Shown: positions 1,252 through 49,526 of the stretch, piece after piece
How the letters are laid out: each line of letters begins with the position of its first letter
Numbering within the stretch: the stretch's first letter is position 1
Source of the DNA: Tulanevirus 60ahydrpp
Taxonomy: Duplodnaviria > Heunggongvirae > Uroviricota > Caudoviricetes > Straboviridae
Length of the DNA: 64,000 bases
IMG/VR virus record: IMGVR_UViG_2974724359_000001
Coordinates: 19,795 to 83,794 of that record
Strand: one strand, 5' to 3'
Notes under the pieces: model-generated
Told to the model about the DNA's origin: nothing
Seen by the model: the letters and a program-made list of their open reading frames with translations, nothing else
Databases searched by the model: none
Made by a program: the position numbers and the translations under genes

Positions 1252-2238
1252 TTAAAATGAGAAAATGATATTGATTTCTTCTGTCTGATCGAGAGCTCGA
1301 GTGATAGGCTGTCTATTTTCCATGTATATCATTTCTCCTGAATCTTTTTCCAATTCTTCAGGTTTACATGCTATCAGGGTCGCTTTAACATCTGGATCGG
1401 ACGGCAATGATTTTTTAACTAACGGGTTGATGATTACGCTCATCTGGCGAAAACCAGTGTTGCCTGGGAGTGATGCCTCAGGGAAGTATATTGAGTCCAT
1501 ATACGCTCTGAACCGGAGTGTGTCTACTTTAACCCGGTAAATGAGGTCTAACTTATCCGGATACCATAGAATAGCATTTTCATACCCCCATCTCGCAGGA
1601 TCGTCAGAAAGTTCATCCGGGAAAGGCACAACAATATGTTCATTTGTGCATCTGTTTATTGATACATCGGGCGGAATAGTGTACAGATATTCCCACACAT
1701 AGCCATCACTCATGTCGATTGCCATAGCAGTCCCGCGAGGTGGTTCAACTGATTCATGAGTTGCAGTCCATTTTCCACCTATAGTGATACACTCTATTTT
1801 GTCATCTATTCCCGAGATAGAACACGAACCAATAGAAGGAACATCAACACAGCGGTAAATCATCCAACCAACCGAACTGTCGGTACGATTGTAGGTAGCC
1901 GAGTTGACTACGACGATATCGTCGATAAAAAATGTCTTTGGATTGTCATATCTGATATCTCCCCAATCTTTACGCGGAATTATTGCGTCCAGTAGAGATT
2001 TATTAATTTTTACTGCACCTAGCATGTTTGTCCACATGTCAACAACGCCATCAACCGAATCATTTGGATATGGAGGTGCAAAGCCGACATCGGTTTCATT
2101 CGTTGACCACGGAGTATCACGTCCAAATGTGGCGTATATTGTGTTTTTGGTGGGCTCGTCGCCCTCCATGTCGTAAAAGTTTAGCAAATTTTTTGTTCTA
2201 AATTTACTAGTAACAATAGCACGATAGAAATTACTCAT
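1252..2238 (-). CDS. gp8: baseplate wedge subunit gp8
   Basis: 328 aa; near-collinear similarity to T4 gp8 (YRAIVTSKFRT, GFAPPYP, CTNEYIVVP, GEMIYMENR, DQTEEINI). Confidence 0.85.
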   Translation of the reverse strand: MSNFYRAIVTSKFRTKNLLNFYDMEGDEPTKNTIYATFGRDTPWSTNETDVGFAPPYPNDSVDGVVDMWTNMLGAVKINKSLLDAIIPRKDWGDIRYDNPKTFFIDDIVVVNSATYNRTDSSVGWMIYRCVDVPSIGSCSISGIDDKIECITIGGKWTATHESVEPPRGTAMAIDMSDGYVWEYLYTIPPDVSINRCTNEHIVVPFPDELSDDPARWGYENAILWYPDKLDLIYRVKVDTLRFRAYMDSIYFPEASLPGNTGFRQMSVIINPLVKKSLPSDPDVKATLIACKPEELEKDSGEMIYMENRQPITRALDQTEEINIIFSF

Positions 2239-9861: not shown

Positions 9862-9864
9862 TTC

Positions 9865-10359
9865 ATGTCAAATATATTACCAGCATCAGCCGTTTTGCCT
9901 GTTAAAAGGGAAAATGAAATAGTATCGCAGACATTTAGCGCAAACCTAACTGAACCAGGGGCAACCCTGGTTTCTTTGGAAATTAGTGCTATAGATCAAA
10001 ATGAAGGAATAGTTATTGTCAACAATGGATTTTCAGGACAATATACTGGAGTTTTTACCCTTAACGGTGGTTTATCATATCGTTTAAAAACCGGAGAACG
10101 TGAAACAGCAAATAGATGGGAAGATTTGCCTGATCCACAAACAACGGATTTGTATTCTTTTCTTGCGCCAAGAGTAATGGAAAAAGAATATTCATACCTT
10201 GTTGTTTTAACATACGACGTTGTTACGCCAACTGAGCCAGGTAATCCTCCAAGCGAACCAGTTAGATATGTGATAAGCAAGACGTATACACAAAAAGTAG
10301 TTGGTGAGTGGAACACATGGGCTAACAATTTGCGAGATTATGTAAATAGGGGTAGATAA
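9865..10359 (+). CDS. hypothetical protein (positional equivalent of T4 5.1)
   Basis: 164 aa ORF tightly packed between gp5 and gp4. Confidence 0.5.
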   Translation: MSNILPASAVLPVKRENEIVSQTFSANLTEPGATLVSLEISAIDQNEGIVIVNNGFSGQYTGVFTLNGGLSYRLKTGERETANRWEDLPDPQTTDLYSFLAPRVMEKEYSYLVVLTYDVVTPTEPGNPPSEPVRYVISKTYTQKVVGEWNTWANNLRDYVNRGR

Positions 10360-10811
10360 TGGCATATTCTGGAAAATTTAGGCCAAAAAACATCGAAAAA
10401 TACAAGGGCAATGCAGATAAAATCACGTATAGGTCCAGTTGGGAAGCGTGGGTCATGAAATTTTGCGATCAGTCGCCTTCAGTTTTAGCATGGAATTCTG
10501 AAGAAGTAATAATCCCGTACTTTTCGAATGCTGACGGAAAAAGACGAAGATATTTCATGGATTTTTGGGTCAAAATGTCAAACGGCCAAGTATTCCTGTT
10601 CGAAGTAAAACCCGAAAAGGAATGCAGACCTCCCCAGATGAAGTCTACGAATACTGCGAAAGCCAAAAAGCAATTTATGGCAGAAATGTACACATGGCAA
10701 GTGAATACAGATAAGTGGAAAGCTGCTAATGCCTTGTGTATGGAAAAAGGTTGGAATTTCAAGATAATAACTGAAAATTCTCTTAGAACTCATTTTGGAT
10801 GGAGAGGATAA
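10359..10811 (+). CDS. gp4: head completion protein gp4
   Basis: 150 aa; MAYSGK..KITYRSSWE..IPYF.NA.GK.RRYFMDFW..NTDKWKAA near-identical in pattern to T4 gp4. Confidence 0.85.
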   Translation: MAYSGKFRPKNIEKYKGNADKITYRSSWEAWVMKFCDQSPSVLAWNSEEVIIPYFSNADGKRRRYFMDFWVKMSNGQVFLFEVKPEKECRPPQMKSTNTAKAKKQFMAEMYTWQVNTDKWKAANALCMEKGWNFKIITENSLRTHFGWRG

Positions 10812-11617
10812 TGATTTTTGACTATATCAATGAAGCTCCACAGAAAAAGTCAAGAAACCAATGGGTAACATTGGGAATAGAATGGAGAGAAGCAAAATCC
10901 AAAGGTGTATCAGGAAAGGATTTTGCAAAATCAAAGGGTCTAAATTATGACACGTTTAGACGGACTATGCTTAAATTCGCAAAGCAAATTGATATTGCCA
11001 TAGAAGTCGAAAGTCTAAAAAATAAAGCAAAATTAAATGCACGCGAAAAAGCATTAGTCATGATAAATGACTTTAGAAGTCAATTACGTTCTAGAGCAGC
11101 TGACACTGGAGCAGCAAACAATAATAAATCTCAAAAATGGTTCAATGATACTGTCAAAAAATCAATTCGTGGTCACATGGTATCAAACCCGAAACCAGGG
11201 AGAATTTACACTTTTGCATATGATGCAAAGCACAAAGATACTCTCGAATATTGGGATAGATTCCCGCTAATTTTATTTTTGGGAATAGGCACATCTTCAT
11301 CAGGCCCCTTAATGTATGGCTTAAACTTGCATTATATTCCTCCAAAAGCTAGACAAAGCTTTTTAGAAGAATTGCTAAAAAATTATGCAAGCACCGAACG
11401 ACTCTCCAATAAAACGACTCTGAAAATAAATTGGTCAAATGTTAAAGGAATGAATGGTTCCGACGTCATGATAAAAGCATACCTACCAGCTCATTTAAAA
11501 GGTTCAATGCTAGAAGTGAAACCTAGCGACTGGGTGAACGTCATTTACATGCCGCTGCAGCAGTTTATGTCGAAAGGCAAACGATACTCTGCCAAAAAGG
11601 TATGGGCACGTGCTTAA
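10799..11617 (+). CDS. gp2: DNA end protector protein gp2 (by size and synteny)
   Basis: 272 aa (T4 gp2 274 aa), basic, between gp4 and gp3 as in T4. Confidence 0.55.
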   Translation: MERIMIFDYINEAPQKKSRNQWVTLGIEWREAKSKGVSGKDFAKSKGLNYDTFRRTMLKFAKQIDIAIEVESLKNKAKLNAREKALVMINDFRSQLRSRAADTGAANNNKSQKWFNDTVKKSIRGHMVSNPKPGRIYTFAYDAKHKDTLEYWDRFPLILFLGIGTSSSGPLMYGLNLHYIPPKARQSFLEELLKNYASTERLSNKTTLKINWSNVKGMNGSDVMIKAYLPAHLKGSMLEVKPSDWVNVIYMPLQQFMSKGKRYSAKKVWARA

Positions 11618-11753
11618 TGGTAATGGCCTGGACTTCGTCTGGGCCATTTTATTTTATAGATTAATAAACCATATATCTCGACGTAACGAGTTTAGCAGGG
11701 TGATTCCGGTTAAACCCTGTATGCATCCAGTTATATAAAGGTTACTGGCTTGC

Positions 11754-13100: not shown

Positions 13101-13330
13101 ACGCAGAACAACAAACCATCGCTTCCCTGAAAATTCGAGTTTTTGATCTGAGCGAGCAACTTGTTGCTACTCAACAACAAGCAAAAGAATTTTCAGATGC
13201 CCTCACCAAAATCGTCCAACTTTTGGGTGTGACCCCGGCCGATGGTGAAGATAGCATTGCCCTTTCTTCTATTGTAGAAGCAGTAGAAGCTCTGGTTCCT
13301 TCTCAAGAAGTTGAAGTGGTAGAAGAATAA
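13097..13330 (+). CDS. 57A: tail-fibre assembly chaperone gp57A-like
   Basis: 77 aa coiled-coil, acidic C-terminus, adjacent to gene 1 and 57B as in T4. Confidence 0.55.
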   Translation: MNAEQQTIASLKIRVFDLSEQLVATQQQAKEFSDALTKIVQLLGVTPADGEDSIALSSIVEAVEALVPSQEVEVVEE

Positions 13331-13767
13331 TGTTTACAGACAGCTTCGTAGGAACATACGTTGCTTGTAAATTTAGTGATGAAACGCTGGATTTTATCCA
13401 GCGTATTCAAGAAGAACTTAGATTGCCAAATCCTGTTCCTCGAGACGAACTTCATTCTACTATCGTTTATAGCAGAGTATATGTTCCATTTATCCCAGAC
13501 GATTCGCCTGAACATTTGGCCGATAGTTGCTATCTGAGAATTTTTGAAACTCCAGAAAAGAATTTTCTTGTTCTGGCGTATGATTCTCCGTACATGCAAA
13601 AACGACATGCGTACGGCCAGATCCTTGGCTCGTCAGCTCATGATTTTGACGAATACATTCCTCACATCACGATTGCAAAAGACATTGGTCCTCTTAAGTA
13701 TGAAGGATCGTATGACTTCCCTATCGTAACAGCACATGAATATGTGGAAGAATTACGTCAAGATTAA
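13330..13767 (+). CDS. acb1: 2H phosphoesterase, Acb1-like (T4 gene 57B homologue; cyclic-oligonucleotide phosphodiesterase)
   Basis: 145 aa with two H-x-T/S-x motifs (HSTIV, HITIA) typical of 2H phosphoesterases; located next to 57A and gene 1 exactly as T4 57B (Acb1). Confidence 0.65.
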   Translation: MFTDSFVGTYVACKFSDETLDFIQRIQEELRLPNPVPRDELHSTIVYSRVYVPFIPDDSPEHLADSCYLRIFETPEKNFLVLAYDSPYMQKRHAYGQILGSSAHDFDEYIPHITIAKDIGPLKYEGSYDFPIVTAHEYVEELRQD

Positions 13768-21477: not shown

Positions 21478-21927
21478 ATGGATATCGGATCCGGCGCGTC
21501 TTGGCCATCATGTGCATTGAGTAATTTTGCTCCACATGAATTCGTTATCGATGGGATTAGATGTTCCTCAATGGAAGGATTCCTTCAGTCTCTCAAATTC
21601 AAATCGCCTGAAATGCAAGAATACGTTTGCACTCTGGTTGGTAAAGCCGCCAAATTTAAAGGCAAAAAGAAAAACTGGTGGAGAGATCAAACTCTGTACT
21701 GGAAAGGTAAACCGATGCGGCGGCAAAGCGATGCTTATTCTGATTTAATCTGCCGAGCATATGACGAAATTGCGAAGAATTCCGGATTTCAACGGGCAAT
21801 CCTAGCCACCCGGAATTCTTCGTTAACTCATTCAATGGGTAAAAGCAAAAAGAATGAAACAGTGTTAACTGAACAAGAATTTTGTTCAAATCTGTATCGT
21901 ATCCGAGATAAACTTCAAGCCGCTTAA
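21478..21927 (+). CDS. NADAR (YbiA-like) domain protein
   Basis: 149 aa; SNFAPHEF..DGIRCSSMEGFLQSLKF matches the NADAR/YbiA signature (SNF...DG...S.EH.fQA.KF). Confidence 0.6.
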   Translation: MDIGSGASWPSCALSNFAPHEFVIDGIRCSSMEGFLQSLKFKSPEMQEYVCTLVGKAAKFKGKKKNWWRDQTLYWKGKPMRRQSDAYSDLICRAYDEIAKNSGFQRAILATRNSSLTHSMGKSKKNETVLTEQEFCSNLYRIRDKLQAA

Positions 21928-26828: not shown

Positions 26829-26830
26829 CA

Positions 26831-26858
26831 ATGGGCTCTTCGGAGCCCATTTTCATTT
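26831..26858 (+). terminator. rho-independent terminator
   Basis: atgggctcttcggagcccattttcatttt. Confidence 0.8.
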
Positions 26859-26924
26859 TATGGTGTACATCACGAAAAATCCATGTTAGAATAAGTTTGA
26901 ATCAATAACATATGGAGTATTATC

Positions 26925-27374
26925 ATGAATCGCTACAAACTTCGGAGAATCCTCGAAGCAGAGTTTAAAGAAATCAACAGAAAAATCGAAGAAGCTCGGT
27001 TGGCTTCTGGTCATGGCCACCGTTTTCATCTGGAATACACCTATCATTTCATAGATGACCTTTTGCTTCGCAATATCAATGTCGATGATACGCTGAGCTT
27101 GATCAAAGGCTTGAAGGAAAAAATACATGAAGTTGACGCATACATGTCTCTTCCGTATCCTCCGCATCTTGACGAAAAACGGGTCGAAGGTGTAGAATAT
27201 CGACCAATTCGCTTAGAAATCACTAATGGATCACTTTGGATTGGAATTACTCCTTCCAAAATTCCGCCATCATCAGAATACAGTTCTTCTTTGACATGCC
27301 GAATGGCAATAGTCAATTCGCGACGTTTAACTTCAAACGTAACTACGAAAGTCATTAAAATGGAGGGGTTATGA
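26925..27374 (+). CDS. hypothetical protein
   Basis: 149 aa ORF. Confidence 0.5.
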   Translation: MNRYKLRRILEAEFKEINRKIEEARLASGHGHRFHLEYTYHFIDDLLLRNINVDDTLSLIKGLKEKIHEVDAYMSLPYPPHLDEKRVEGVEYRPIRLEITNGSLWIGITPSKIPPSSEYSSSLTCRMAIVNSRRLTSNVTTKVIKMEGL

Positions 27375-27922
27375 GGCTATTGATGATTCTCATGATCGTA
27401 TTTGCCACACATGTTTATGCCGGTCCGTCGGTAACAGATTTTACGGACACTCAAAAGTACAATTTGTCGTATGCTTACAACTATGGAAAAGCTTATGACT
27501 TGATGGGAGAATTGCGAGATGTCAATAATCCGAATTTCTGGAACGATCGTCATCTTGGCACATTATTCGCTGCTATCGCATGGGAAGAATCCTCAGCTGG
27601 AATAAACACTGGTAGAAATAAAAAGGGTCATCACGCGTATGGGATGTTTCAAAATCTTTACACAACGGTTACATCTAAACTCGACAATAGAGGAATTCCG
27701 TACAGACATTGGTATCTGAAAAGGGATTTGGAGCGTAAAAGTTCTTCTGCCGAATGGGCTATGGATGAACTCTCATACTGGCTCAAGGTTCGAAAAGGTA
27801 ACATTCGAATTGCTCTGGCTTCATACAACGCAGGTTGGAATTACCATGCTGGATTGAAGTACGCTGATCGAGTTTTAGCTAAGAACCAAAACCTCAAGAA
27901 AATGGAATTTATTTCAAAATAA
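27371..27922 (+). CDS. lytic transglycosylase (SLT domain) with N-terminal signal or anchor
   Basis: 183 aa; hydrophobic N-terminus MRLLMILMIVFATHVYA; SLT motifs AWEESSAG, AYGMFQ, ASYNAG. Confidence 0.6.
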   Translation: MRLLMILMIVFATHVYAGPSVTDFTDTQKYNLSYAYNYGKAYDLMGELRDVNNPNFWNDRHLGTLFAAIAWEESSAGINTGRNKKGHHAYGMFQNLYTTVTSKLDNRGIPYRHWYLKRDLERKSSSAEWAMDELSYWLKVRKGNIRIALASYNAGWNYHAGLKYADRVLAKNQNLKKMEFISK

Positions 27923-27924
27923 AA

Positions 27925-27964
27925 GTGTAAATTTGATGAGACTATGATACGATAGTCTCATCAA
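27925..27964 (+). promoter_or_regulatory. promoter with palindrome (PeSL-like variant)
   Basis: GTGTAAA -35, TACGAT -10, inverted repeat TTGATGAGACTAT / ATAGTCTCATCAA. Confidence 0.45.
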
Positions 27965-27986
27965 ATAAACCATCCAAGGAAATCCA

Positions 27987-28214
27987 ATGAAAGTACGATT
28001 CAAATCCAAAGAAGATCGTAGCGAATTCATGCAACGTGGTCCAGCAAATAGGATGATTGCGACACTTATCGGCATGAATTGGTGGCTTGCTGAGAATCGT
28101 CTGAATGATGGCACAATCGAACTCGTGACTCCTCAAAAAGAATGCATCGAAATCGACGGATATTACGCTCTCATTTTCATGAATGAGCGCAAATATTTCC
28201 ACATTATTGTCTAA
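27987..28214 (+). CDS. small protein, RFKS-family paralogue 1
   Basis: 75 aa; N-terminus MKVRFKSKEDRSEF shared with ORFs at 37141 and 40338. Confidence 0.5.
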   Translation: MKVRFKSKEDRSEFMQRGPANRMIATLIGMNWWLAENRLNDGTIELVTPQKECIEIDGYYALIFMNERKYFHIIV

Positions 28215-28219
28215 ATCAT

Positions 28220-28251
28220 GTTGATGAGACCTTGGTATAATTGTCTCATCA
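28220..28251 (+). promoter_or_regulatory. extended -10 promoter inside palindrome
   Basis: TTGATGAGAC-cttgGTATAATt-GTCTCATCAA. Confidence 0.4.
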
Positions 28252-28528
28252 AATGAAAACACGCGGAGTATTAATTATGCATTACATCATCAACAAAAAC
28301 GGTATCGCCTTTGTTGTTTCGCTGGAAGGTTTTGATATTTCCAAAATCGATGGGAAAACCTTTTCCAGCCTATATGATATGAACCTTGAAATGCACGAGG
28401 AGTGTATCGGTTTCGAATATCTCGTAACACGAGAAGCTCCTGATTCACCGGTCATGATGTACACACAATACAGTGGCGAAATCGTGAAAATCGAACCTGA
28501 GCGTTTCATCAACGAATTTGTTTTGTGA
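28241..28528 (+). CDS. hypothetical protein
   Basis: 95 aa ORF. Confidence 0.45.
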   Translation: MSHQMKTRGVLIMHYIINKNGIAFVVSLEGFDISKIDGKTFSSLYDMNLEMHEECIGFEYLVTREAPDSPVMMYTQYSGEIVKIEPERFINEFVL

Positions 28529-28535
28529 GGGATAT

Positions 28536-28763
28536 ATGGAACATATTTTCGCTATAGAAGATGTAAATCCGAATGTTGTCATCGTTTGGCAAACTATTGG
28601 CAACTGGAAAGTAGGTTTTTCTAATGGAAAGACTTATGACTTTACGATTCATTGGGATGTAGATCTTCAAATGACTATTTATGCTCTAACGGACGAAAAT
28701 GGTCTCGGATTTCAAAGTTGTGATTTCGTTGACATTTTGGCATTTGACGGAGATGTATCGTGA
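28536..28763 (+). CDS. hypothetical protein
   Basis: 75 aa from ATG 28536 with RBS gagggatat. Confidence 0.45.
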   Translation: MEHIFAIEDVNPNVVIVWQTIGNWKVGFSNGKTYDFTIHWDVDLQMTIYALTDENGLGFQSCDFVDILAFDGDVS

Positions 28764-29182
28764 AAAAACTTGTGTTAGCTAGTATTCTTTCCATATCATT
28801 TTCTGCATTTGCGAATGTCGGAGAAATGTTCTGGTTTCCTGAAAAATCGGGAGCACTGCAGGAATTTTCAGATGACTCTGGAACTTACGAATCTGCTTTG
28901 TCCATTGAATGCGATAGTCAAAAATTGAAAACCTATGATGACTGTCTCGGCATTGTGTTCAATGGCGATTCCTGGATGATCGACGCCGCGCGCGACGACA
29001 GCAACATCCTCGTTGGTAATGCACCCGTGATGATTACGATCAACGGAGTTGTTCAGCGTCTTCACTATATTCGCACTGATACCGCTATCGTCATCAATCG
29101 TTCTGAAAACCCTGGATTTCAGCCAATTGGCAAAGTCCTCAAAGTAGTAACGGCAAAAGGTAAAGGAGAGTTCACATTATGA
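28760..29182 (+). CDS. secreted protein
   Basis: 140 aa, signal peptide MKKLVLASILSISFSAFA. Confidence 0.55.
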   Translation: MKKLVLASILSISFSAFANVGEMFWFPEKSGALQEFSDDSGTYESALSIECDSQKLKTYDDCLGIVFNGDSWMIDAARDDSNILVGNAPVMITINGVVQRLHYIRTDTAIVINRSENPGFQPIGKVLKVVTAKGKGEFTL

Positions 29183-29661
29183 TCGTTAACACAGTCAAAG
29201 GTAATGCAATCAGTCTGTTTCTGAACGGCGAATATGACATGTTTGCGCATGGTTGTAACATTTTTAACCGAATGGGTTCTGGCATTGCTAAAGAAGTTCG
29301 TGAACGCCTCCCTGAGCTTTGGGAACTCGATCAAAAGACAGTTGAAGGTGATCGTTCCAAGCTTGGAACGATCTCGGCCACAAGTTACCCTTATGCTGGC
29401 CTTGCCTTCAACTTCTATACTCAGGCGACTTACTGGGACCCTAGCGATATGTTGTCCTATGATGCGGCCCGTTCATGCTTTGAAACCTTGAACACTATGT
29501 GTCAAGAAACTGTCGATTTTGGCCTCGGTAAGCCGACTATGTGCATTCCTATGATCGGCGCAGGTCTTGCCCGGGGCGATTGGGACAAGATTTCTGCAAT
29601 CATCAACGAAGTAACTCCAAATATTGATATTACAGTGGTGGAATTCGATGGCAGTCGGTAA
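29179..29661 (+). CDS. macro domain protein (ADP-ribose binding or processing)
   Basis: 160 aa; GNAISLFLNGEYDMFAHGCNIFNRMGSGIAKEV and IPMIGAGLARGDW resemble macro-domain Gly-rich loops. Confidence 0.5.
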   Translation: MIVNTVKGNAISLFLNGEYDMFAHGCNIFNRMGSGIAKEVRERLPELWELDQKTVEGDRSKLGTISATSYPYAGLAFNFYTQATYWDPSDMLSYDAARSCFETLNTMCQETVDFGLGKPTMCIPMIGAGLARGDWDKISAIINEVTPNIDITVVEFDGSR

Positions 29662-29845
29662 ATGGCAACAGTGTGGTCCGGTGATGAACCGTATCTTCGA
29701 ATGTGCAATAGTCGAATTGCTTGGCGAAGAATGTAAAGGTATTATAATCCACTCATATCGTGACGCCGGCGATGTAGTTCTCGTGAATTACGAGTTGATG
29801 TACCGCGGCCGAGTGTTTATTGGTCAAACCTCAATGGTGCCGTAA
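29648..29845 (+). CDS. hypothetical protein
   Basis: 65 aa from ATG 29648. Confidence 0.35.
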   Translation: MAVGKWQQCGPVMNRIFECAIVELLGEECKGIIIHSYRDAGDVVLVNYELMYRGRVFIGQTSMVP

Positions 29846-30174
29846 TGAAATTTCCAAAAGAATTTTTGATTGAACTCATTGGCGAATCGCTGGAAATCAT
29901 CCCAGGAGAAGGTCTTCCATCAGAACTGTGTGGCAAATATGAAACTTTAGTAAATGAAGTTGTCGACCGTGGCCGCTGGACTGTTTATTACGACTTTGTT
30001 TTCTCCTTTGAAAAGGATGGAGTAAAGCGTTATTTCCGCGAGCCGTATGAAGTCGGCGCAACAGAAGAGCAGGACAGCCCGATTTGGGAAAATGAACCCG
30101 ATCTGATGGATGTCAGTGAAGTTGAACCGTATGAAGTGACTACAATTGTATATAAGTGGAAGAACAATGGCTAA
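29845..30174 (+). CDS. hypothetical acidic protein
   Basis: 109 aa ORF. Confidence 0.5.
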   Translation: MKFPKEFLIELIGESLEIIPGEGLPSELCGKYETLVNEVVDRGRWTVYYDFVFSFEKDGVKRYFREPYEVGATEEQDSPIWENEPDLMDVSEVEPYEVTTIVYKWKNNG

Positions 30175-30631
30175 AGAAATAGAACGTAAATGGCTTGTTA
30201 AATTTGTTCCATACAAGAATTTGGAGCAGTTTCCTCATAAGCAAATTGCGCAATTCTACTTTGACGGCAAACGCTATCGAAGTGTGATGGAAACTGGCGT
30301 TCGTGAAAAATTCATTGAAACTGTAAAAACTGGCTCCGGTTTGGTTCGTGAAGAGGTCGAACATGAAATCGACAAAAATGCTGCATGGGAAGCCCATGAT
30401 GCTGCAGGTTTACCAACTTGCGTCGTTAAGACCAGATACGAAATACCGCATGGCCATGGACTAACGGCCGAACTCGATATGTTTGCTAGCGGTGAACAAT
30501 ATATCGAGATCGAATTTGATAACGTCGAAGATGCCAATGCATTCATTCCACCGTGCTGGTTCGGCGAAGAAGTTACCAATGATGAATATCACACCAACTA
30601 TGCGCTTTTCAAGCGGCTCAACGAGGTCTAA
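30167..30631 (+). CDS. CYTH (triphosphate tunnel metalloenzyme) domain protein
   Basis: 154 aa from ATG 30167 (ATGGCTAA overlap with previous stop); begins KEIERKWLV, the ExExK CYTH signature. Confidence 0.55.
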   Translation: MAKEIERKWLVKFVPYKNLEQFPHKQIAQFYFDGKRYRSVMETGVREKFIETVKTGSGLVREEVEHEIDKNAAWEAHDAAGLPTCVVKTRYEIPHGHGLTAELDMFASGEQYIEIEFDNVEDANAFIPPCWFGEEVTNDEYHTNYALFKRLNEV

Positions 30632-31207
30632 ATGGCAAGTCTTCATTTTCACTATGCTGCAATGAATTCCGGTAAAAGCACTCATTTACTTCAAGTAGCC
30701 CACAATTACGAAGAACGTGGTATGCGTGCTATTATCATAAAGCCTGCAATTGACACACGTGATGGCGCAACAGTATCCTCGCGAATTGGTCTATCACGGC
30801 CTGCTATTATGGTGAGGCAAAGCGACAGTTTGACAGCCTTGATCGACAAAGAGCATAGCAGGCAGCGCATTAGTTGTGTGTTAGTAGATGAAGCGCAATT
30901 TCTGCTTCCAGAACAAGTCAGTCAGCTCGCATCGGTCGTAGATGAATTAGACATTCCAGTAATGTGCTATGGGCTGTTGTCTGATTCAAACGGTAACATG
31001 TTTCCTGCAGCAGAACGACTGGTAGTTTTAGCAGAAGAAAAGGTTGAACACAAAACCATATGTTGGTGTGGCACCAAAGCTACAATGAACATGAGAATCG
31101 ACGAAAATGGCAAGAAGGTGTGGGGCCCAAGTGTTTCGATAGGTGGCAATGATCGCTATATTTCAGTGTGTCGTAAACACTGGAACATGGGAAAATCTTC
31201 AAAATAA
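30632..31207 (+). CDS. tk: thymidine kinase
   Basis: 191 aa; MASLHFHYAAMNSGKST, LVDEAQFL, VMCYGL, CWCG...VCRKHW align with T4 Tk. Confidence 0.9.
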   Translation: MASLHFHYAAMNSGKSTHLLQVAHNYEERGMRAIIIKPAIDTRDGATVSSRIGLSRPAIMVRQSDSLTALIDKEHSRQRISCVLVDEAQFLLPEQVSQLASVVDELDIPVMCYGLLSDSNGNMFPAAERLVVLAEEKVEHKTICWCGTKATMNMRIDENGKKVWGPSVSIGGNDRYISVCRKHWNMGKSSK

Positions 31208-31281
31208 TTTCAAAAAGTTGTTTACAACGAGGCCTTTTCATATAAAATGGCCTCAAGTTAAACAAAAATGAGAAACACACT

Positions 31282-31545
31282 ATGAAAAGTTCTGATGTTT
31301 TTGCCCAAGTTCAACTTGCCCAAGCTTTTGCCACTGAAGAGTTGAAACGCAAATTAGCTCCTGTTGGAAAATTCGTTGCCGACGAAATGATTTCCAAACG
31401 AGTTTTTACAATCACCTTCGCAGGCGATAAATTCCCTGGAATTTACACCAGAGATATCGTCGACTATCTAAGAACTCTTGGATATGAGACTCGCACCGAA
31501 TCTCACCGTAATGAAAGCTATATCACCGTAACTGCAAAACCCTAA
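31282..31545 (+). CDS. hypothetical protein
   Basis: 87 aa ORF, preceded by GTTTACA / TATAAAAT promoter-like sequence with GAGGCC/GGCCTC inverted repeat. Confidence 0.5.
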   Translation: MKSSDVFAQVQLAQAFATEELKRKLAPVGKFVADEMISKRVFTITFAGDKFPGIYTRDIVDYLRTLGYETRTESHRNESYITVTAKP

Positions 31546-31565
31546 TTCAATCAAAAGGAAATATA

Positions 31566-32489
31566 ATGCGTACTATGTCCAAAACTCCGAAAATTACCAA
31601 GAAAATGGGCCTTTCTATCGCAGCCGGTCTGCTGGCCGCAATTACTGCCCTGAATATCTTTACTGTGGTCGATGATGGCTCTGTTGCAACTGCCACTTTC
31701 CTTGGTAAAGTTAGCCCAAATATCATGCAGCCCGGCCTGAACATCATCAATCCGTTGGCATCAGTTGATACCTATTCAACTCGTGATCTGAAGATGGAAT
31801 TCTCAAACGTACAAGTTCCTTCTCAAGATAAACTGAAAACTTCTGTCGATATCACTCTGATGCTGCGATTCGACGGTGATAAAGCCCAAATGGTTCGTAT
31901 CAATGGCGGTACCGAACGCCAAGCCATTGACAAGTACGTCGCGAAGAAATTCGAGAGTACCGTTCGCGAATCTGGTAAAAACATCAAGAAAGCACAAGAT
32001 CTGTTTGGCGATGCAAAGACCCAATCCATGCTGCAAGACATGATCAAAACTGAAGTCAATGACTATTCCAAGCCGTTTGGTTATGAAGTAACTGAAGTAT
32101 TCCTGCAAGAAATTACTCTGCCGAAGCTGATTCAAGACCAGGTTGAGCAAACCAAAATTCGCGAAGAAGCCGTAAACCAGGCCCAAGCGGATCTGGATAA
32201 AGCTGAAAAAGTGGCACAACAGCAGGTTAAGACAGCCGAAGCTGCGCGTGAAGCTCGTGAACAAAACGCTGTTGCCAACGAACGTGACGCTGATGCTAAA
32301 CTGTATGCCGCCGGTAAAGAAGCTGAAGCTAACGTTCTGCTGCAGAAAACCATTACTCCTGAAATGATCAAATGGCGCCAGCTGGAAGTCGAAATGATTC
32401 GTGCCAACAAATATCAAGGCGGTGTACCACAGACTGTGGTCGGCGCTGGTTATGACGGCCAAATGCTGATGGACATGCGTTCCAAGTAA
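31566..32489 (+). CDS. SPFH/band-7 (prohibitin/stomatin-like) membrane protein
   Basis: 307 aa; N-terminal TM segment, SPFH core (IINPLASVDTYSTRDLKMEFSNVQVPSQDKLKTSVDITLMLRFD), C-terminal Ala/Glu-rich coiled coil. Confidence 0.65.
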   Translation: MRTMSKTPKITKKMGLSIAAGLLAAITALNIFTVVDDGSVATATFLGKVSPNIMQPGLNIINPLASVDTYSTRDLKMEFSNVQVPSQDKLKTSVDITLMLRFDGDKAQMVRINGGTERQAIDKYVAKKFESTVRESGKNIKKAQDLFGDAKTQSMLQDMIKTEVNDYSKPFGYEVTEVFLQEITLPKLIQDQVEQTKIREEAVNQAQADLDKAEKVAQQQVKTAEAAREAREQNAVANERDADAKLYAAGKEAEANVLLQKTITPEMIKWRQLEVEMIRANKYQGGVPQTVVGAGYDGQMLMDMRSK

Positions 32490-37744: not shown

Positions 37745-38803
37745 ATGGTTTATAATTATGATCGTGCTGTTGTTATTGGCCGCTTTTCCAGCTTTTTCCA
37801 CCGTGGACATGAAATGCTGATTTACAAAGCGCTTCAAACTGCTGAAACTGTTGCTGTTGTCTTCGGGTCATCCCATTGTTATCCAAACACAGTCAACCCG
37901 CTTCCGACGCCGATTCGAATCAGGATGTTCAAAGAATGGATGAGTAACAATCTCACTCCTAGCGAACAAGCCAGAATTGTTTTCGGCAATGTTCCTGACT
38001 ACCGTTATAATGAAGATCGCTGGCAAACAGAAGTTCGTGAGGCCGCGCAAGAGCAACCGGGCGAGCGTGTTGCGATGATTGCATACGATAAGGATGAAGA
38101 TTCTTATTGGATCAAAACCTTTGGATGGGACCATATTCAATGCATGGGCGTTCAGAATCACGGAAAAGACATCTCAAATACCCCAATGCGCGATGAATTT
38201 CTTCGAACCGGTTCTATCCACGACGATTTCCCTATCAATCCGTCAGTGCGGTCATTTCTTTTGAAATTTTGGAATACTGAAGGTTCCGAAATACGCAGCC
38301 GGTTGATGGAAGAACGTGCGATGTGGGACAATGAACTTGCAAAGTTTAAAGATTACCCATACGCTGATGCTCTCAACTGCAATACTGCTGATGCCGTAGT
38401 AACGTGCAACAACCATATTCTGGTTATTAGCCGCAAACATGCACCAGGCAAAGGTGCTCTTGCTCTTCCAGGTGGTCACAAGAATTCCAATGAGACCTTC
38501 CGCGATTGTGCAATTCGCGAATTGTATGAAGAAGTTCGGATTGATGTCGATCGTCAAAAAATCATTGGGTCTATAAAAGCACACGAAGTATTTGATCACC
38601 CAAAGAGAACAGCAGAGTTCTGCAAACCAACGGTTGCTTATTATATCGTACTTCAACCCAATGACGATGGTAGTTTGCCTGAAGTCCGTGCTGATGATGA
38701 TGCAAAAGCAGCATTTTGGATGCCAATGCATGAATACAAGAGAAATCGGGCACGTATGTTTGACGATCATGCTGAAATCATTTCACGCTTCACCGGTATC
38801 TAG
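37745..38803 (+). CDS. natV: bifunctional NMN adenylyltransferase / Nudix hydrolase (NatV-like)
   Basis: 352 aa; N-terminal (H/T)xGH nucleotidyltransferase motif GRFSSFFHRGHEML; C-terminal Nudix box GGHKNSNETFRDCAIRELYEEVRI. Confidence 0.75.
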   Translation: MVYNYDRAVVIGRFSSFFHRGHEMLIYKALQTAETVAVVFGSSHCYPNTVNPLPTPIRIRMFKEWMSNNLTPSEQARIVFGNVPDYRYNEDRWQTEVREAAQEQPGERVAMIAYDKDEDSYWIKTFGWDHIQCMGVQNHGKDISNTPMRDEFLRTGSIHDDFPINPSVRSFLLKFWNTEGSEIRSRLMEERAMWDNELAKFKDYPYADALNCNTADAVVTCNNHILVISRKHAPGKGALALPGGHKNSNETFRDCAIRELYEEVRIDVDRQKIIGSIKAHEVFDHPKRTAEFCKPTVAYYIVLQPNDDGSLPEVRADDDAKAAFWMPMHEYKRNRARMFDDHAEIISRFTGI

Positions 38804-39354: not shown

Positions 39355-40338
39355 GTGGAAATTATGCAAAAAGTAGTTTTTGAGGGCCTTCATGGCTCTC
39401 ATCTTTACGGACTCAATACTCCCGAATCTGACCTGGATATGAAAGGCATTTTCATCCCCGATCCCAAAGATATTCTGCTTGGCCGAGCCAAAAGAAGCTA
39501 TTCCATCACAACTGGCAACGACAAGTCCAAGAACAGCAAGGATGATATCGATATCGAAATGTTTTCGCTCCAGCAATTCATCCTGGATGCGGCCAAGGGT
39601 GAAACCTATGCGCTGGATATGCTGCATTCTCCAAAAGACAAAATCATCACCGACTCGTCTGTTTGGCAATATATCCATCAAAACCGGTCTGCTTTCTACA
39701 CGACCAATATGACTTCCTATATGGGTTATGTTATGAAGCAAGCGGCAAAATACGGTGTTAAAGGTTCTCGTTTAGCCGCATTACGAGAAGTAAAAGAGTT
39801 CATGGATGCTCTTCAGATTCACGAAAACCCAAGACTGCGAGACCTAAAAGTTCCTCTGCCACAAAACGAGTTCTGCTTCTGGACTCACGTTGAAGAAAAT
39901 CCCGACACCATGTCGTATTACACCATGATGGGCCGTAAGTACATGGCTGGTGTTAAGATCGCTGAATTCTGCGGGGCAGTTGACAAGCTCTGGGCCGAAT
40001 ATGGCGATCGAGCTCGCAAAGCCGAAGCAAATGAAGGTATCGACTGGAAAGCTCTAAGTCATGCGATGCGAGGCGGTCTTCAATTGCTTGAAATTTACAA
40101 AACTGGCGATTTGAAGTATCCATTGGCTGATGCTGAAGAAATCAAACTGGTTAAAGCCGGTAAACTGCCTTTCGCTGTTGTTCAAGAACGCCTCGAAGAA
40201 ATCGTTGGAAATGTTGATACGGCCGCAAAAGAGGCATCTAAGAACGGAATGCCCGATAAAGTGGACATTGGACCATGGGAAGCGTTTGTCGAACAGGTTT
40301 ACGCTGAAGCAATGAAAGAATATCTGGAGAGCAAATAA
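39355..40338 (+). CDS. predicted nucleotidyltransferase (pol-beta superfamily, RlaP-like)
   Basis: 327 aa; N-terminal GLHGSHLYGLNTPESDLDMKGIF matches GS/hG[GS]x9-13Dh[DE]h nucleotidyltransferase signature. Confidence 0.5.
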   Translation: MEIMQKVVFEGLHGSHLYGLNTPESDLDMKGIFIPDPKDILLGRAKRSYSITTGNDKSKNSKDDIDIEMFSLQQFILDAAKGETYALDMLHSPKDKIITDSSVWQYIHQNRSAFYTTNMTSYMGYVMKQAAKYGVKGSRLAALREVKEFMDALQIHENPRLRDLKVPLPQNEFCFWTHVEENPDTMSYYTMMGRKYMAGVKIAEFCGAVDKLWAEYGDRARKAEANEGIDWKALSHAMRGGLQLLEIYKTGDLKYPLADAEEIKLVKAGKLPFAVVQERLEEIVGNVDTAAKEASKNGMPDKVDIGPWEAFVEQVYAEAMKEYLESK

Positions 40339-43063: not shown

Positions 43064-44542
43064 ATGAATATGATCCGTCCACACATCGGCGTGAAAGGTA
43101 TCCCTCTGATCGCAATGACTGATTCTTACAAAATCACCCATTGGAACCAGATGCCTGAAGGTACCGAAGAAGCAGTTTTCTACGTCGAAGCTCGTGGTGG
43201 CAAATTCGATGAAATCGTTATCGGTGGCGTGGAATATCTGCTGACCAAGTTTGCAGAAATCATCACCAAAGATGATATTGACGAAATGGATGCCATGAGC
43301 AAGGCTCACTTTGGCCAAGACGTATTCAACCGTGAAGGTTGGGAAGCAGTCCGCCAATATCAAGAACAGCATGGCTGTCTGCCCATCCAAATCGATGCTG
43401 TTCCGGAAGGTACTGTTGTCCCAGTCAAGAATGTTGTGCTGACTGTTCGTGTCAAAGCACCATTCGTTTGGCTGGCGGGCTGGTTTGAGCCAATCATTTT
43501 GAGAGCTGTCTGGTACACTTCTACTGTTGCCACGCTGAGCCGCGAATGTATCAAATCTATTCGCCGCCACCTGATTGAAACTTCTGACCTGGAAGTAGGC
43601 AGTCCTGAGTTCAACTTTGTGCTGATGACCCGACTACATGATTTTGGTTCTCGCGGCGTTAGTTCTGGTGAATCTGCTGCAATCGGCGGTTGTGCTCATC
43701 TGTACAACTCCATGGGGACTGACACTTTCGAGTCGCTGTATTTCGCAAAACAACTGTTTGGCGCCGAAATGGCAGGCATCTCTGTACCAGCCCGTGAGCA
43801 CTCCACCGTAACCTCTTGGGGTGCCGACCGTGAAAAAGACGCCTACCTCAACTCGGTTGAACTCTTTGGTGCTGGTGCATATTCCATTGTGTACGACTCT
43901 ACCGATTTCAAGAAGGCAATCCGCGAAATTGAGAGCTATAAGGACGAAGTTATCGCCAAGGGTGGTACTCTGATCGCTCGGCCTGACAGTGGTGATATGA
44001 TCGACAATATCAGTTTTGCCCTGGAAACTCTGGGTGAAATCTTCGGTTATGAAACCAACAGCAAGGGCTACAAGGTTCTGAATAAGCATTGCCGCATTAT
44101 TCAAGGTGATGGCATCGACGGCCCCGAAGTTATCGACCGTGTTCTGACTGTTATGAAAGCTCGCGGTTGGGCTGCAGAGAATATTGCGTTCGGCATGGGT
44201 GGCGGTCTTCTGCAAATGGTCAACCGCGACACTTGCAAGTGGGCCATGAAAATGTCTGCTATCAAAATCAATGGTGTATGGAAAGACGTATTCAAATGCC
44301 CGAAAGGTGCTGAATGGAAAGCTTCCAAGAAAGGCCAGCTCAAACTGCGAATCATGGATGACGGCCGCTATTATACCGAAGGAACTATTGAAGGTGGTCA
44401 AATTCTGTACGGTGTAAGCATCAAAGACGGTTTTGTTGAACTTATGTCGAAAGATGCATTCGTCCGTTATTATGACGCTGAAAAAGGTCAAAAATTCAAG
44501 AGCAATCTGGCTCAAATCCGCCAACGAACTGCAATTAAGTAA
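43064..44542 (+). CDS. nadV: nicotinamide phosphoribosyltransferase (NadV/NAMPT)
   Basis: 492 aa; IAMTDSYKITHWNQ and overall NAMPT length and pattern. Confidence 0.75.
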   Translation: MNMIRPHIGVKGIPLIAMTDSYKITHWNQMPEGTEEAVFYVEARGGKFDEIVIGGVEYLLTKFAEIITKDDIDEMDAMSKAHFGQDVFNREGWEAVRQYQEQHGCLPIQIDAVPEGTVVPVKNVVLTVRVKAPFVWLAGWFEPIILRAVWYTSTVATLSRECIKSIRRHLIETSDLEVGSPEFNFVLMTRLHDFGSRGVSSGESAAIGGCAHLYNSMGTDTFESLYFAKQLFGAEMAGISVPAREHSTVTSWGADREKDAYLNSVELFGAGAYSIVYDSTDFKKAIREIESYKDEVIAKGGTLIARPDSGDMIDNISFALETLGEIFGYETNSKGYKVLNKHCRIIQGDGIDGPEVIDRVLTVMKARGWAAENIAFGMGGGLLQMVNRDTCKWAMKMSAIKINGVWKDVFKCPKGAEWKASKKGQLKLRIMDDGRYYTEGTIEGGQILYGVSIKDGFVELMSKDAFVRYYDAEKGQKFKSNLAQIRQRTAIK

Positions 44543-48620: not shown

Positions 48621-49526
48621 ATGATTATTGTTGGCTCTCGTGCTTTTCAAGCTAGGCTAATTCCATTTGTTGCTCCTACAGTAAATATGGACCATGACTT
48701 CATTGCATACGAAGAAGAATGGAACGAATATCAAGCCAGAATGCAAGGTCGGACTATTGAAGTAAAAAGCTCGAATGTTCGAGCTTTCGTCGTCGGTGAT
48801 GGTAAATCTCGTTGCTGTTATCATGAAGCATATATCGTTCAGCCTGGCTCGTCCGATGAAATGATTTACAAACTCATGGATACTGTTCCAGGTAAAGACG
48901 TATATGCCACTCCCGAAATTCTTCTAGCCATGAAAATGGCTCATCGGTTCAAAAAGAACACTCGCAATTTCATCAAAACCATGATGCACATTCATGAATT
49001 GCGTGAATTTGGTATAGTCATGGGGCCTGAACATGTGGAAATTTTCAAAAAGCGTGAACAAGAATCTCTGAATTATGGCCATCCGAAGCTTAACGTCGGC
49101 AAAGGCGCATTTTTCAAAGACGACATCTACACCTATGATCATGATACAATTCACGAAGCTGTGGCGGTTGACGGGATTCCAGCGTATCGATCATATATGG
49201 TTGATGGCGCTGAAGTAATGACGTCAAAAGAAAAATTCTTTAATTGCTCTCGTCACAATCAGTTGATGGGTGTTTATGAAGAATCTTGCGTTTTGGCCCT
49301 GGAACGCTGTCTTATTCCTTTCCCAGGAAAAGTTCAACCCTATAAAGCTTTTCAAATGGCCCTTGAGAAAGTATGCACTTCTATTACATCTGGTTGGTTC
49401 CGTGAATTTGCATGGGAAAATTATTGTGACGTTATGAAAATTTACGCCGATCAAGTCAGGGCTGGCGACTCATACGACGAATTGTTCAAACGAAACCAGC
49501 ATCTCCTGAAAATTCACAGTAAATAA
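48621..49526 (+). CDS. hypothetical protein (301 aa)
   Basis: long ORF, RBS gaggattttgtt. Confidence 0.55.
   Translation: MIIVGSRAFQARLIPFVAPTVNMDHDFIAYEEEWNEYQARMQGRTIEVKSSNVRAFVVGDGKSRCCYHEAYIVQPGSSDEMIYKLMDTVPGKDVYATPEILLAMKMAHRFKKNTRNFIKTMMHIHELREFGIVMGPEHVEIFKKREQESLNYGHPKLNVGKGAFFKDDIYTYDHDTIHEAVAVDGIPAYRSYMVDGAEVMTSKEKFFNCSRHNQLMGVYEESCVLALERCLIPFPGKVQPYKAFQMALEKVCTSITSGWFREFAWENYCDVMKIYADQVRAGDSYDELFKRNQHLLKIHSK

Follow-up and report, generated by a model that had tools for sequence, protein, structure and literature searches.

A Tk.4/AdfM-type macrodomain gene and a NeuTTM-like CYTH gene as neighbours upstream of thymidine kinase in Aeromonas phage 60AhydR15PP

Just upstream of the thymidine kinase gene of Aeromonas phage 60AhydR15PP, a T4-like Tulanevirus, are genes for a macro-domain protein and a CYTH-domain protein, separated by two small open reading frames. 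Do the two enzymes act together against host immunity, as a preliminary description of this DNA had proposed, or are they neighbours for another reason? In the window, by which we mean the whole 64-kb stretch that was analysed, the macro gene, both small frames, CYTH and tk were all found where that description had placed them (Table 1). The reading that we favour, with a probability of roughly 0.6, is that the macro protein is of the AdfM type and directed against DarT2, that CYTH encodes an enzyme of the NeuTTM type which works independently and serves nucleotide pools, and that the two genes are adjacent by synteny.

Table 1. Features of the window discussed in the text.
Feature	Position	Strand	Evidence and remarks
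regB and vs.1 homologues	26925..27922	+	Anchor the T4 regB-vs.1-...-tk.4-...-tk block on its upstream side; BLASTP to T4 RegB 44%, E 5e-41, to Vs.1 42%, E 7e-40
Macro-domain protein, 160 aa	29179..29661	+	T4 Tk.4/AdfM orthologue; predicted DNA (thymidine) ADP-ribosyl glycohydrolase
65-aa ORF, phrog_1873	29648..29845	+	PHROG E 5.6e-22
109-aa ORF, phrog_6343	29845..30174	+	PHROG E 7.9e-45; one of a wide small-protein family of phages, motif RW...Y..GATE.Q
CYTH / triphosphate tunnel metalloenzyme, 154 aa	30167..30631	+	Predicted NeuTTM type; phmmer, AF2, Foldseek, tunnel residues
Thymidine kinase (tk)	30632..31207	+	Conserved T4 anchor gene; Pfam TK E 6.6e-46; 47% identity to T4 tk
gp30.3 homologue (T4 AdfN, NADAR-type anti-DarTG1 factor)	21478..21927	+	Pfam Phage_30_3 E 2.3e-56
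Acb1 (T4 57B) homologue, anti-CBASS phosphodiesterase	13330..13767	+	Pfam Acb1 E 1.4e-38

The genes of this string are tightly packed, with overlaps of 1–14 nt or abutting ends; the 65-aa frame overlaps the macro stop by 14 nt, and tk starts on the base directly after the CYTH stop. The CYTH reading frame itself spans 30146-30631, the ATG at 30167 giving a protein that begins MAKEIERKWLV. Directly upstream of regB and vs.1 are a terminator-like site (26830-26851) and promoter-like sites, and no terminator-like site was found on the + strand from 26851 to 32000. The gene order, regB-vs.1-...-macro-65aa-109aa-CYTH-tk, corresponds to regB-vs.1-vs-tk.4-tk.3-tk.2-tk.1-tk in T4: the macro gene occupies the slot of tk.4, between regB/vs.1 and tk, and CYTH sits in the variable slot that is filled in T4 by tk.1-tk.3. 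Synonymous versus non-synonymous codon changes relative to phage phiAS4 number 8:3 in the macro gene, 18:5 in CYTH (corrected for a 1-nt indel; the phiAS4 copy has a possible frameshift) and 10:1 in the 109-aa frame, which indicates purifying selection on the latter.

Neither small frame showed homology to T4 tk.1-tk.3 in BLASTP searches. Aeromonas phage 31 encodes a homologue of the 65-aa product, 55% identical, in the corresponding slot. The 109-aa family is present in 62 phage records, all but two of them (60/62) from Aeromonas phages, and in 195 cluster representatives of a library of 1.84 billion proteins; no relative was found for it in Pfam or the PDB.

The macro protein contains GCNIFNRMGSGIA and IPMIGAGLARGDW, and carries the glycine-rich loops GSGIA and GAGLARG. 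Its AF2 model (pLDDT 93.9, pTM 0.89) is matched best in Foldseek by TARG1, BT1257, DarG and Poa1p, with SCO6735 also among the best 30 (probability 1.00), and a profile of its family matches solved macrodomains in the PDB (BT1257, 2.7e-18; SCO6735, 1.2e-15; TARG1, 5e-11; DarG, 9e-11), all of which bears out the macro fold proposed earlier. By phmmer the single sequence reaches TARG1 (E 1.7e-4). The Pfam Macro model, PF01661, gave no match at E ≤ 1; this is a sensitivity gap of the model and not evidence against membership, because most homologues at 37–48% identity carry PF01661 and the family profile matches solved macrodomains at 1e-10 to 1e-18. DarG is the sole match in the PADLOC and NCBIfam libraries, where the alignment covers only the first ~145 positions of the model and scores 16 bits against a cutoff of 250.

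Full-length similarity by BLASTP to T4 Tk.4 (35% identity over 161 columns, E 1e-31), together with the shared slot, identifies the macro protein as the positional and sequence orthologue of Tk.4. Both are single domains of near-equal size (160 and 155 aa) with identical His, Asn and Gln positions, and the gene is the counterpart of T4 tk.4/adfM in an Aeromonas phage, differing from it in host genus and in its surroundings: T4 tk.4 stands amid vs and tk.1-tk.3, and 60AhydR15PP has other small frames and CYTH instead. In a HIDEN-SEQ preprint, tk.4 is the single T4 gene needed, and depleted, on a DarTG2 host, and was named adfM; a clean tk.4 knockout sensitises T4 to DarTG2, with the enzymology inferred there (10.1101/2025.11.20.689424). 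The orthology and common synteny make the earlier suggestion of DarT as the opponent a fitting one for the macro gene.

The active site of the macro protein is of the SCO6735 type. Residues H24, N27 and Q82 are invariant across 57 family members and align with H24, N27 and Q85 of SCO6735, in which the Gln at the position of TARG1 K84 and DarG K80 is stabilised by Asn27, with His24 nearby, and in which Q85 and N27 are required for activity on dT-ADPr DNA (PMC9411070). On DNA carrying DarT-made dT-ADPr, SCO6735 is a faster hydrolase than either DarG or TARG1; it has a strong preference for DNA substrates over protein ones, with some activity on Glu/Asp-ADPr proteins (PMC9411070). SCO6735 of Streptomyces coelicolor (PDB 5E3B) and BT1257 of Bacteroides (2FG1/2AFC), the best PDB profile matches, share the GxGLAxGxW loop and the H24/N27/Q85-type site with the macro protein, but are cellular proteins. 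The lysines K34 and K89 that position DNA in SCO6735 are not kept, S34 and W86 standing at the aligned positions with the basic residues R31 and K38 near them.

Also of the same ALC1/TARG1-like class are the DarG macrodomain (5M31, 5M3I, 7OMU) and human TARG1 (4J5R), with profile values and Foldseek E values both about 1e-10. In the macro protein, however, the DarG catalytic Lys has given way to Q82, and the catalytic Lys84/Asp125 dyad of TARG1 is absent, with Q82 and A131 at the aligned positions. Whereas DarG joins its macrodomain to a C-terminal DarT-binding domain (about 330 aa; 329 model positions in PADLOC, 338 in NCBIfam), the macro protein is a single 160-aa domain from which the DarT-binding part is missing.

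The macro protein is thereby predicted to be a stand-alone ADP-ribosyl glycohydrolase that most likely strips the ADP-ribose placed by host DarT2 on thymidines of single-stranded phage DNA, which would let phage replication proceed. Q82, held by N27 beside H24, would position the distal ribose, and the Gln-type site would take over from the DarG catalytic Lys and from the TARG1 Lys/Asp dyad. For 60AhydR15PP itself we infer the anti-DarT2 activity from the T4 orthologue and from this active site.

A different substrate for the macro protein was considered, namely the phage's own ADP-ribose chemistry: it might undo the ADP-ribosylation that phage ARTs place on protein or RNA, or clear ADP-ribose-1''-phosphate or O-acetyl-ADP-ribose, by-product clearing to which the annotation 'A1pp phosphatase' corresponds. 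The family is labelled 'phosphatase' in PHROG and GenBank, clear structural relatives include Poa1p, an ADPR-1''-phosphatase, and TARG1, a protein de-ADP-ribosylase, and protein substrates are within reach of SCO6735. Yet the sole reported genetic phenotype of the T4 orthologue is lost DarTG2 resistance, and both the DNA preference of SCO6735 and the missing TARG1 dyad also speak against this account, which we regard as unlikely.

The CYTH protein is likewise missed by its Pfam model (PF01928, no match at E ≤ 1) and is recognised by comparison with NeuTTM, an inorganic triphosphatase of Nitrosomonas europaea (NE1496, PDB 2FBL/3TYP), to which it is 34–35% identical at equal length (phmmer E 6e-15). 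The AF2 model (pLDDT 94.6, nine predicted strands) has the eight-stranded β-barrel tunnel fold. NeuTTM is its best structural match, ranking first in Foldseek (E 6e-10); ranks 1–10 (E ≤ 0.001) are all CYTH enzymes (NeuTTM, PH1012, HpAC1, PH1819, Pfu-838710 and YpAC-IV), and ThTPase is next in the list (E about 3e-3). The ExExK motif is present as E4-I-E6-R-K8 and a C-terminal ExE as E114-I-E116, and all 16 tunnel residues of NeuTTM, basic and acidic (including the K52/Y28 pair, here K54/Y31, and K85), are identical. It differs from NeuTTM in the C-terminal helix, where it has HTNYALFKRLNEV, a motif common to the Aeromonas phage copies, and in being phage-encoded. The check by structure prediction that had been advised has upheld the macro and CYTH folds alike, the latter agreeing with phmmer.

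NeuTTM is specific for PPPi, and CthTTM, a relative in the same cluster, also takes NTPs; the substrate of the CYTH protein cannot be read from its sequence. As an independent NeuTTM-type triphosphate tunnel metalloenzyme it would be a divalent-cation-dependent hydrolase, cleaving the terminal phosphate from inorganic triphosphate or a (d)NTP-like triphosphate, and would most likely serve phage nucleotide-pool management. Its surroundings in other phages include thymidylate synthase (CF8), dUTPase (L006), a MazG fusion (L003), gp39 with MazG and dUTPase nearby (Aeh1) and a DHH phosphoesterase (Nachito). These settings fit the idea, put forward in PMC7824862, that nucleotide pools are culled by phage triphosphatases of the CYTH and MazG kinds, but are weak evidence for the role because such genes are common in phage early regions. 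That idea, a single speculative sentence in a survey of jumbo phages, is the only statement on phage CYTH function in the literature searched.

The CYTH gene is far more restricted than the macro gene. Macro homologues are present in 2925 phage records, from hosts that include Aeromonas, Vibrio, Pseudomonas, Klebsiella and Acinetobacter, and CYTH homologues in 109, making the former roughly 27 times more widespread. Aeromonas phages of at least three families account for 79 of these 109 and cluster in a rough neighbour-joining tree without support values, on account of which CYTH resembles a gene of host-specific conflict more than a housekeeping one; it is probably an accessory gene circulating among Aeromonas phages. 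Clustering of all neighbours within 2.5 kb at 15 phage loci revealed no CYTH partner family that recurs across lineages beyond close relatives. An origin of the gene in the host is unsupported: the 80 best bacterial loci come mostly from Clostridia and MAGs, and Aeromonas genomes are absent from them. The neighbourhoods of these 80 loci reveal just the housekeeping gene order of Lachnospiraceae (DJ-1/PfpI, trigger factor, ClpP and ClpX), and are as uninformative as the contexts of three metagenomic CYTH homologues.

The same distribution could be explained if CYTH, possibly with the 109-aa protein, were a stand-alone, Aeromonas-specific enzyme of counter-defence or host takeover that hydrolyses a host triphosphorylated alarmone, signal or toxic nucleotide. 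The Aeromonas copies that group in the tree come from Straboviridae, Chaoshanvirus and Ludhianavirus, and the 109-aa family is nearly confined to Aeromonas phages, its gene adjoining CYTH in two different genomic contexts. A Bacillus SPbeta-like homologue of the 109-aa protein is encoded directly downstream of the anti-Gabija gene Gad1, and jumbo phage D3 fuses CYTH to a WYL-like ligand-sensor domain (a weak match, E 0.0011). Against this stand the distance of 17 kb between the 109-aa gene and CYTH in phage 65, the lack of a recurrent neighbour, the missing support values of the tree, and the possible phiAS4 frameshift, by which the gene may be dispensable. We know, moreover, of no defence system whose signal is an established substrate of NeuTTM-type enzymes. 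An enzyme of this kind is a rather improbable reading, and its more specific form, a counter-defence unit of CYTH and perhaps the 109-aa protein that moved between at least three families by horizontal transfer and destroys a triphosphorylated immune signal, alarmone or toxic nucleotide, is more doubtful again; were it true, the tk.4-tk interval, with AdfM adjoining, would be an anti-defence islet.

A further reading is cooperation of the macro and CYTH proteins in one counter-defence module against ADP-ribose- or NAD-derived or 5'-triphosphorylated signals (Thoeris gcADPR, cyclic or linear oligoadenylates). The genes are about 500 nt apart in one overlapping string, and the macro-x-x-CYTH-tk block is retained in several genera of related 160–190 kb Aeromonas T4-like phages, even where the sequences have diverged considerably (CYTH down to 50% identity), and with its genes translationally coupled; such stability and coupling would be compatible with co-function. 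The block occurs only in those phages, however, and no conserved adjacency or fusion of macro and CYTH was found across unrelated lineages. About 50 kb separate the two in phage AS-sw, and among 15 other phage CYTH loci 14 have no macro gene nearby (within 4–10 kb), the exception being phage 31, with the same block. None of the best 80 bacterial CYTH loci has a macro gene within 5 kb (0/80). The breadth of the macro family relative to CYTH counts against a module too, as does T4, in which tk.4 is present and CYTH absent and the orthologous macro protein acts with no such partner.

The window does hold a wider set of related genes, as had been claimed: the gp30.3/AdfN and Acb1 homologues were found by Pfam, and two NAD-salvage genes are annotated downstream in the GenBank record, one for an NMN adenylyltransferase/Nudix protein and one for a nicotinamide phosphoribosyltransferase. 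T4 30.3 is adfN, a NADAR enzyme against DarTG1 in the T4 literature, and on this ground and its Pfam match the gp30.3 homologue is what had been listed as 'NADAR'; a phmmer search with an approximate E. coli YbiA sequence gave no match. Although these genes would suit a module, the active site of the macro protein agrees with that of a DNA dT-ADPr hydrolase and not with that of a known gcADPR-degrading enzyme, the literature searched reports no CYTH enzyme acting on immune signals, and no result links the CYTH protein with gcADPR, with cyclic oligoadenylates or with any other such signal. Joint action of the two proteins has thus found no support, the adjacency being confined to one inherited gene block, and we consider a module very unlikely. 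The adjacency appears to be inherited synteny and not the mark of a common pathway, and the locus would consist of two unrelated enzymes packed in one T4-type early gene string. That the pairing is without precedent, as had been noted, is true, but only because it appears incidental.

Published motif rules separate the enzymes of the CYTH superfamily: class IV adenylate cyclases have HFxxxxExExK and a small residue in place of the central Arg of RxR, and thiamine triphosphatases have WxRxR, the Trp stacking on the thiazolium ring (PMC8233210). The CYTH protein has only M-A-K before E4, leaving no HF motif, and keeps the central Arg (R36-Y-R38); G34 stands at the Trp position (G34-K35-R36-Y37-R38), which rules out a thiamine triphosphatase. 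On these rules it is predicted to be a TTM and neither a cyclase nor a ThTPase. A cAMP-making, CyaB-like cyclase is hardly credible even though class IV enzymes (Aeromonas CyaB, Yersinia YpAC-IV) share the superfamily fold, GenBank notes in Aes012 and phage 65 read 'similar to bacterial adenylate cyclase', and CyaB of the host genus is given as a founding CYTH member (PMC3440374): besides the motifs, phmmer gave no match to Yersinia AC-IV structures at E ≤ 10, and their Foldseek similarity (E about 1e-3, TM about 0.5) is weak next to that of NeuTTM.

Both genes are of already known kinds, and the role of AdfM against DarTG2 is already reported for T4. The gene that 60AhydR15PP and most related records among those listed label 'hypothetical protein' may now be named an AdfM/Tk.4-type anti-DarT macrodomain, and its CYTH neighbour a putative NeuTTM-type triphosphatase, both of which Pfam's own models miss. 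The strong concentration of a NeuTTM-like triphosphatase in Aeromonas phages from several families calls for an explanation, as does its choice of substrate. The AdfM family, with its SCO6735 Gln-type active site, reaches far beyond the phages of E. coli, and 60AhydR15PP brings together AdfN, AdfM and Acb1 homologues and annotated genes of NAD salvage.

Upstream of tk in Aeromonas phage 60AhydR15PP (MH179477.1; Straboviridae, Tulanevirus), which is 100% identical to window 28700–31300 (record coordinate minus 19794 gives the window coordinate), are a macro-domain gene, two small ORFs and a CYTH gene, placed as in the preliminary description. All genes of this macro–CYTH finding are annotated 'hypothetical protein' in the GenBank record. 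Neighbouring genes abut or overlap throughout the macro–tk string, the macro ATG overlapping the stop codon of the 140-aa ORF before it. From 26851 to 32000 the + strand is free of terminator-like sites, so the string from regB to tk looks like a single T4-style early transcription unit. Comparison with phage phiAS4 gives an excess of synonymous over non-synonymous changes in the macro gene (8:3) and the 109-aa ORF (10:1), and 18:5 in the CYTH gene after correction of a 1-nt indel.

Features of the window and of the comparison loci (L, loci from other phages or viral contigs)
Feature	Coordinates	Strand	Basis or remark
Acb1 homologue	13330–13767	+	Pfam 1.4e-38; GenBank 'hypothetical protein'
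gp30.3 homologue	21478–21927	+	Pfam Phage_30_3, 2.3e-56; GenBank 'hypothetical protein'
75-aa ORF	28536–28763		GenBank 'putative beta-ketoacyl synthase'
140-aa ORF	28760–29182		Signal-peptide-like N-terminus
Macro ORF	29179–29661	+	ORF list; 160 aa, both glycine-rich motifs of the preliminary description present
65-aa ORF	29648–29845	+	ORF list
109-aa ORF	29845–30174	+	ORF list
CYTH ORF	30167 (ATG)–30631	+	154-aa product, N-terminus MAKEIERKWLV
tk	30632 (start)	+	Directly after CYTH stop; Pfam TK, 6.6e-46
SPFH/Band-7 protein	31566–32489		Pfam match; just downstream of tk
NAD-salvage genes	37745–38803; 43151–44542		GenBank annotation
RlaP RNA-repair Pol-beta nucleotidyltransferase	39355–40338		Pfam match; adjoins NAD-salvage genes
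DUF7277–DUF7275 protein	48621–49526		Pfam match
L003, viral contig	8642–11749		CYTH locus
L011	4778–5056		109-aa ORF observation
L013, phage D3 (NC_070957.1)	3185–4699		CYTH domain in 504-aa protein
L016, phage Nachito	5001–6480		CYTH/TTM locus
L099, phiAS4 (HM452125.1)	1345–1810		Split CYTH gene
L100	2944–3216		109-aa ORF observation

The name given to the 75-aa ORF seems spurious, since it has no Pfam support. The ORF that occupies the position of the 140-aa ORF in phage 31 carries a 'putative membrane lipoprotein' note.

The macro fold proposed for the 160-aa protein is borne out, even with no Macro match at E ≤ 1 in Pfam-A (2025 copy). Searches of the PDB with phmmer retrieve TARG1/OARD1 (1.7e-4), BT1257, SCO6735, Poa1p and DarG, and a profile of 57 family members reaches BT1257 (2.7e-18), SCO6735 (1.2e-15), TARG1 (5e-11) and the DarG proteins of M. 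tuberculosis (9e-11) and T. aquaticus (8.5e-10). The AlphaFold2 model (pLDDT 93.9) has TARG1, BT1257, DarG and Poa1p as best Foldseek matches; PF01661 is present in most homologues at 37–48% identity, and DarG is the sole match in PADLOC and NCBIfam, far sub-threshold in the latter.

Spanning its full length, the macro protein is homologous to T4 Tk.4 (35% identity, E 1e-31), and its orthologue already carries the tk.4 label in records of phages 25, 31, 44RR2.8t, RB43 and Phi1; by tblastn the family extends to 2925 phage records from many host genera. The T4 order is regB–vs.1–vs–tk.4–tk.3–tk.2–tk.1–tk–rI.1–rI, and clear RegB, Vs.1, Tk.4 and Tk homologues retain it in the window, rI being annotated farther downstream in the 60AhydR15PP record. 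In T4, tk.4 is reported to be the sole gene depleted on a DarTG2-expressing host; its clean knockout sensitises the phage, and the gene was named adfM (HIDEN-SEQ preprint, 10.1101/2025.11.20.689424). SCO6735, the biochemical precedent, strips DarT-made ADP-ribose off DNA thymidine faster than DarG or TARG1; the role of the catalytic lysine falls to Gln85, which Asn27 locks (PMC9411070). Invariant within the phage family are H24, N27 and Q82, which align to SCO6735 H24, N27 and Q85, whereas TARG1 Lys84 and Asp125 are replaced by Q82 and A131. Homology and synteny show the macro gene to be an AdfM/Tk.4 orthologue; given the HIDEN-SEQ phenotype, the SCO6735 residues and the DarG match, its product is a predicted thymidine-linked DNA ADP-ribosyl glycohydrolase whose activity in 60AhydR15PP we infer. 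The main structural caveat on this prediction is that the DNA-positioning lysines of SCO6735, K34 and K89, are not conserved.

The CYTH protein likewise has no CYTH match at E ≤ 1 in Pfam-A (2025 copy), and this Pfam/NCBIfam detection gap is why most related phage records listed leave both genes unnamed. Its fold is nonetheless confirmed: with phmmer it matches NeuTTM (3TYP/2FBL), an inorganic triphosphatase from Nitrosomonas, at 6e-15, and the structural model (pLDDT 94.6) also matches NeuTTM best (E 6e-10, 34–35% identity), ahead of other CYTH enzymes, with only a weak match to the class IV cyclase. All 16 NeuTTM tunnel residues mapped by HMM-guided alignment (E4, E6, K8, Y28, R39, R41, K52, R59, E61, E63, K85, R87, E99, D101, E114 and E116) are identical in the phage protein, the majority being invariant or nearly so among its homologues. 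Class IV cyclases require HFxxxxExExK and lose the central Arg of RxR, WxRxR is the ThTPase motif, and TTM triphosphatases combine a small residue at the ThTPase Trp position with both arginines and ExE (Vogt et al., PMC8233210). With three residues only before ExExK, G34-K-R36-Y-R38 and E114-I-E116, the protein is therefore, by its sequence motifs, a predicted TTM phosphohydrolase, a further NeuTTM-type triphosphatase. The 'adenylate cyclase' of some GenBank notes is ruled out by the short stretch before ExExK and the retained RxR.

The CYTH gene occurs in only 109 phage records, 79 of them Aeromonas phages, with more distant CYTH folds sporadic in other large phages. On a rough NJ tree without support values, copies from Tulanevirus, Biquartavirus, Ceceduovirus, Ishigurovirus, Chaoshanvirus and Ludhianavirus group together, apart from that of Aeh1. 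The nearest bacterial relatives (35–43% identity) are mostly from Clostridia and MAGs, and the best 80 bacterial loci include no Aeromonas genome. In jumbo Aeromonas phage D3 the domain (residues ~273–427) follows a ~270-aa N-terminal region, and the C-terminal ~60 residues weakly match a WYL ligand sensor (Pfam E 0.0011, below gathering score); the BFVD model of this protein (A0A514TV53) has TM 0.93 to the window CYTH. In phiAS4 a 1-nt insertion in an A-run around the K88 codon breaks the gene into two annotated ORFs. The insertion may be a sequencing error; if the frameshift is real, the gene would seem dispensable.

The macro–CYTH pairing, proposed as a meaningful link, dissolves outside one clade. 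A macro–x–x–CYTH–tk block (gap about 250–530 nt) is present in every 160–190 kb Aeromonas T4-like phage in both hit lists, including Tulanevirus, Biquartavirus and the phage 25, B614/UP87 and IME13 groups, and is vertical synteny. In AS-sw, outside this clade, CYTH lies at 6.8 kb and macro at 56.4 kb; a macro gene lies within 4–10 kb of CYTH in one of 15 other phage and viral-contig loci (phage 31, the same block) and within 5 kb in none of 80 bacterial loci. T4 has tk.4 and lacks CYTH, its tk.4–tk interval holding the unrelated tk.1–tk.3, and no recurring neighbour family was found across the CYTH loci compared. CYTH thus occupies a variable slot flanked by two conserved anchors, and inherited gene order best explains the pairing.

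Elsewhere, CYTH neighbours include thymidylate synthase (CF8), dUTPase (locus L006), a MazG–cytidylyltransferase fusion (L003), gp39 with MazG and dUTPase nearby (Aeh1) and a DHH phosphoesterase (Bacillus phage Nachito). One published suggestion is that triphosphatases of the CYTH and MazG kinds manage nucleotide pools in phages (PMC7824862), and these neighbourhoods, a weak indication, mildly favour such a role. The concentration in one host genus would also be compatible with a role in conflict. A counter-defence enzyme specific to Aeromonas, consisting of CYTH and perhaps the 109-aa protein, is an improbable reading. In Nachito a sigma factor gene precedes the CYTH gene, which overlaps the phosphoesterase gene; L003 has a sigma-70-type factor gene ~450 nt before CYTH, separated from it by one 134-aa ORF, and the fusion comes after CYTH. 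The two may represent a recurrent nucleotide-processing neighbourhood.

The 109-aa ORF is one of a broad family of ~90–110-aa phage proteins (195 cluster representatives) that lack annotation and share an invariant RW...Y..GATE.Q motif; no Pfam or PDB relatives were found for them. In the phage collection the family is nearly limited to Aeromonas phages, which account for 60 of its 62 records, and it adjoins CYTH in two different genomic contexts. In Bacillus phages SPbetaL1/L4 a homologue (39% identity) overlaps and directly follows the annotated anti-Gabija gene Gad1.

The preliminary interpretation is thus partly supported: both folds, the wider toolkit, in which Acb1 is confirmed, and, through T4 Tk.4, the proposed DarT link of the macro protein stand, and the functional pairing falls away. 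The NADAR gene of that interpretation is presumably the gp30.3 homologue; T4 30.3 is AdfN, a NADAR enzyme acting against DarTG1, not DarTG2 (PMC11825919; 10.1101/2025.11.20.689424), so that both T4 anti-DarT enzymes, AdfN and AdfM, have homologues in 60AhydR15PP. The toolkit picture is right, yet already documented for T4. The macro gene is a new member of its family, for which a function was reported late in 2025. With its Acb1, gp30.3 and macro genes, 60AhydR15PP therefore carries homologues of the known or proposed counter-defence complement of T4, together with annotated NAD-salvage genes.
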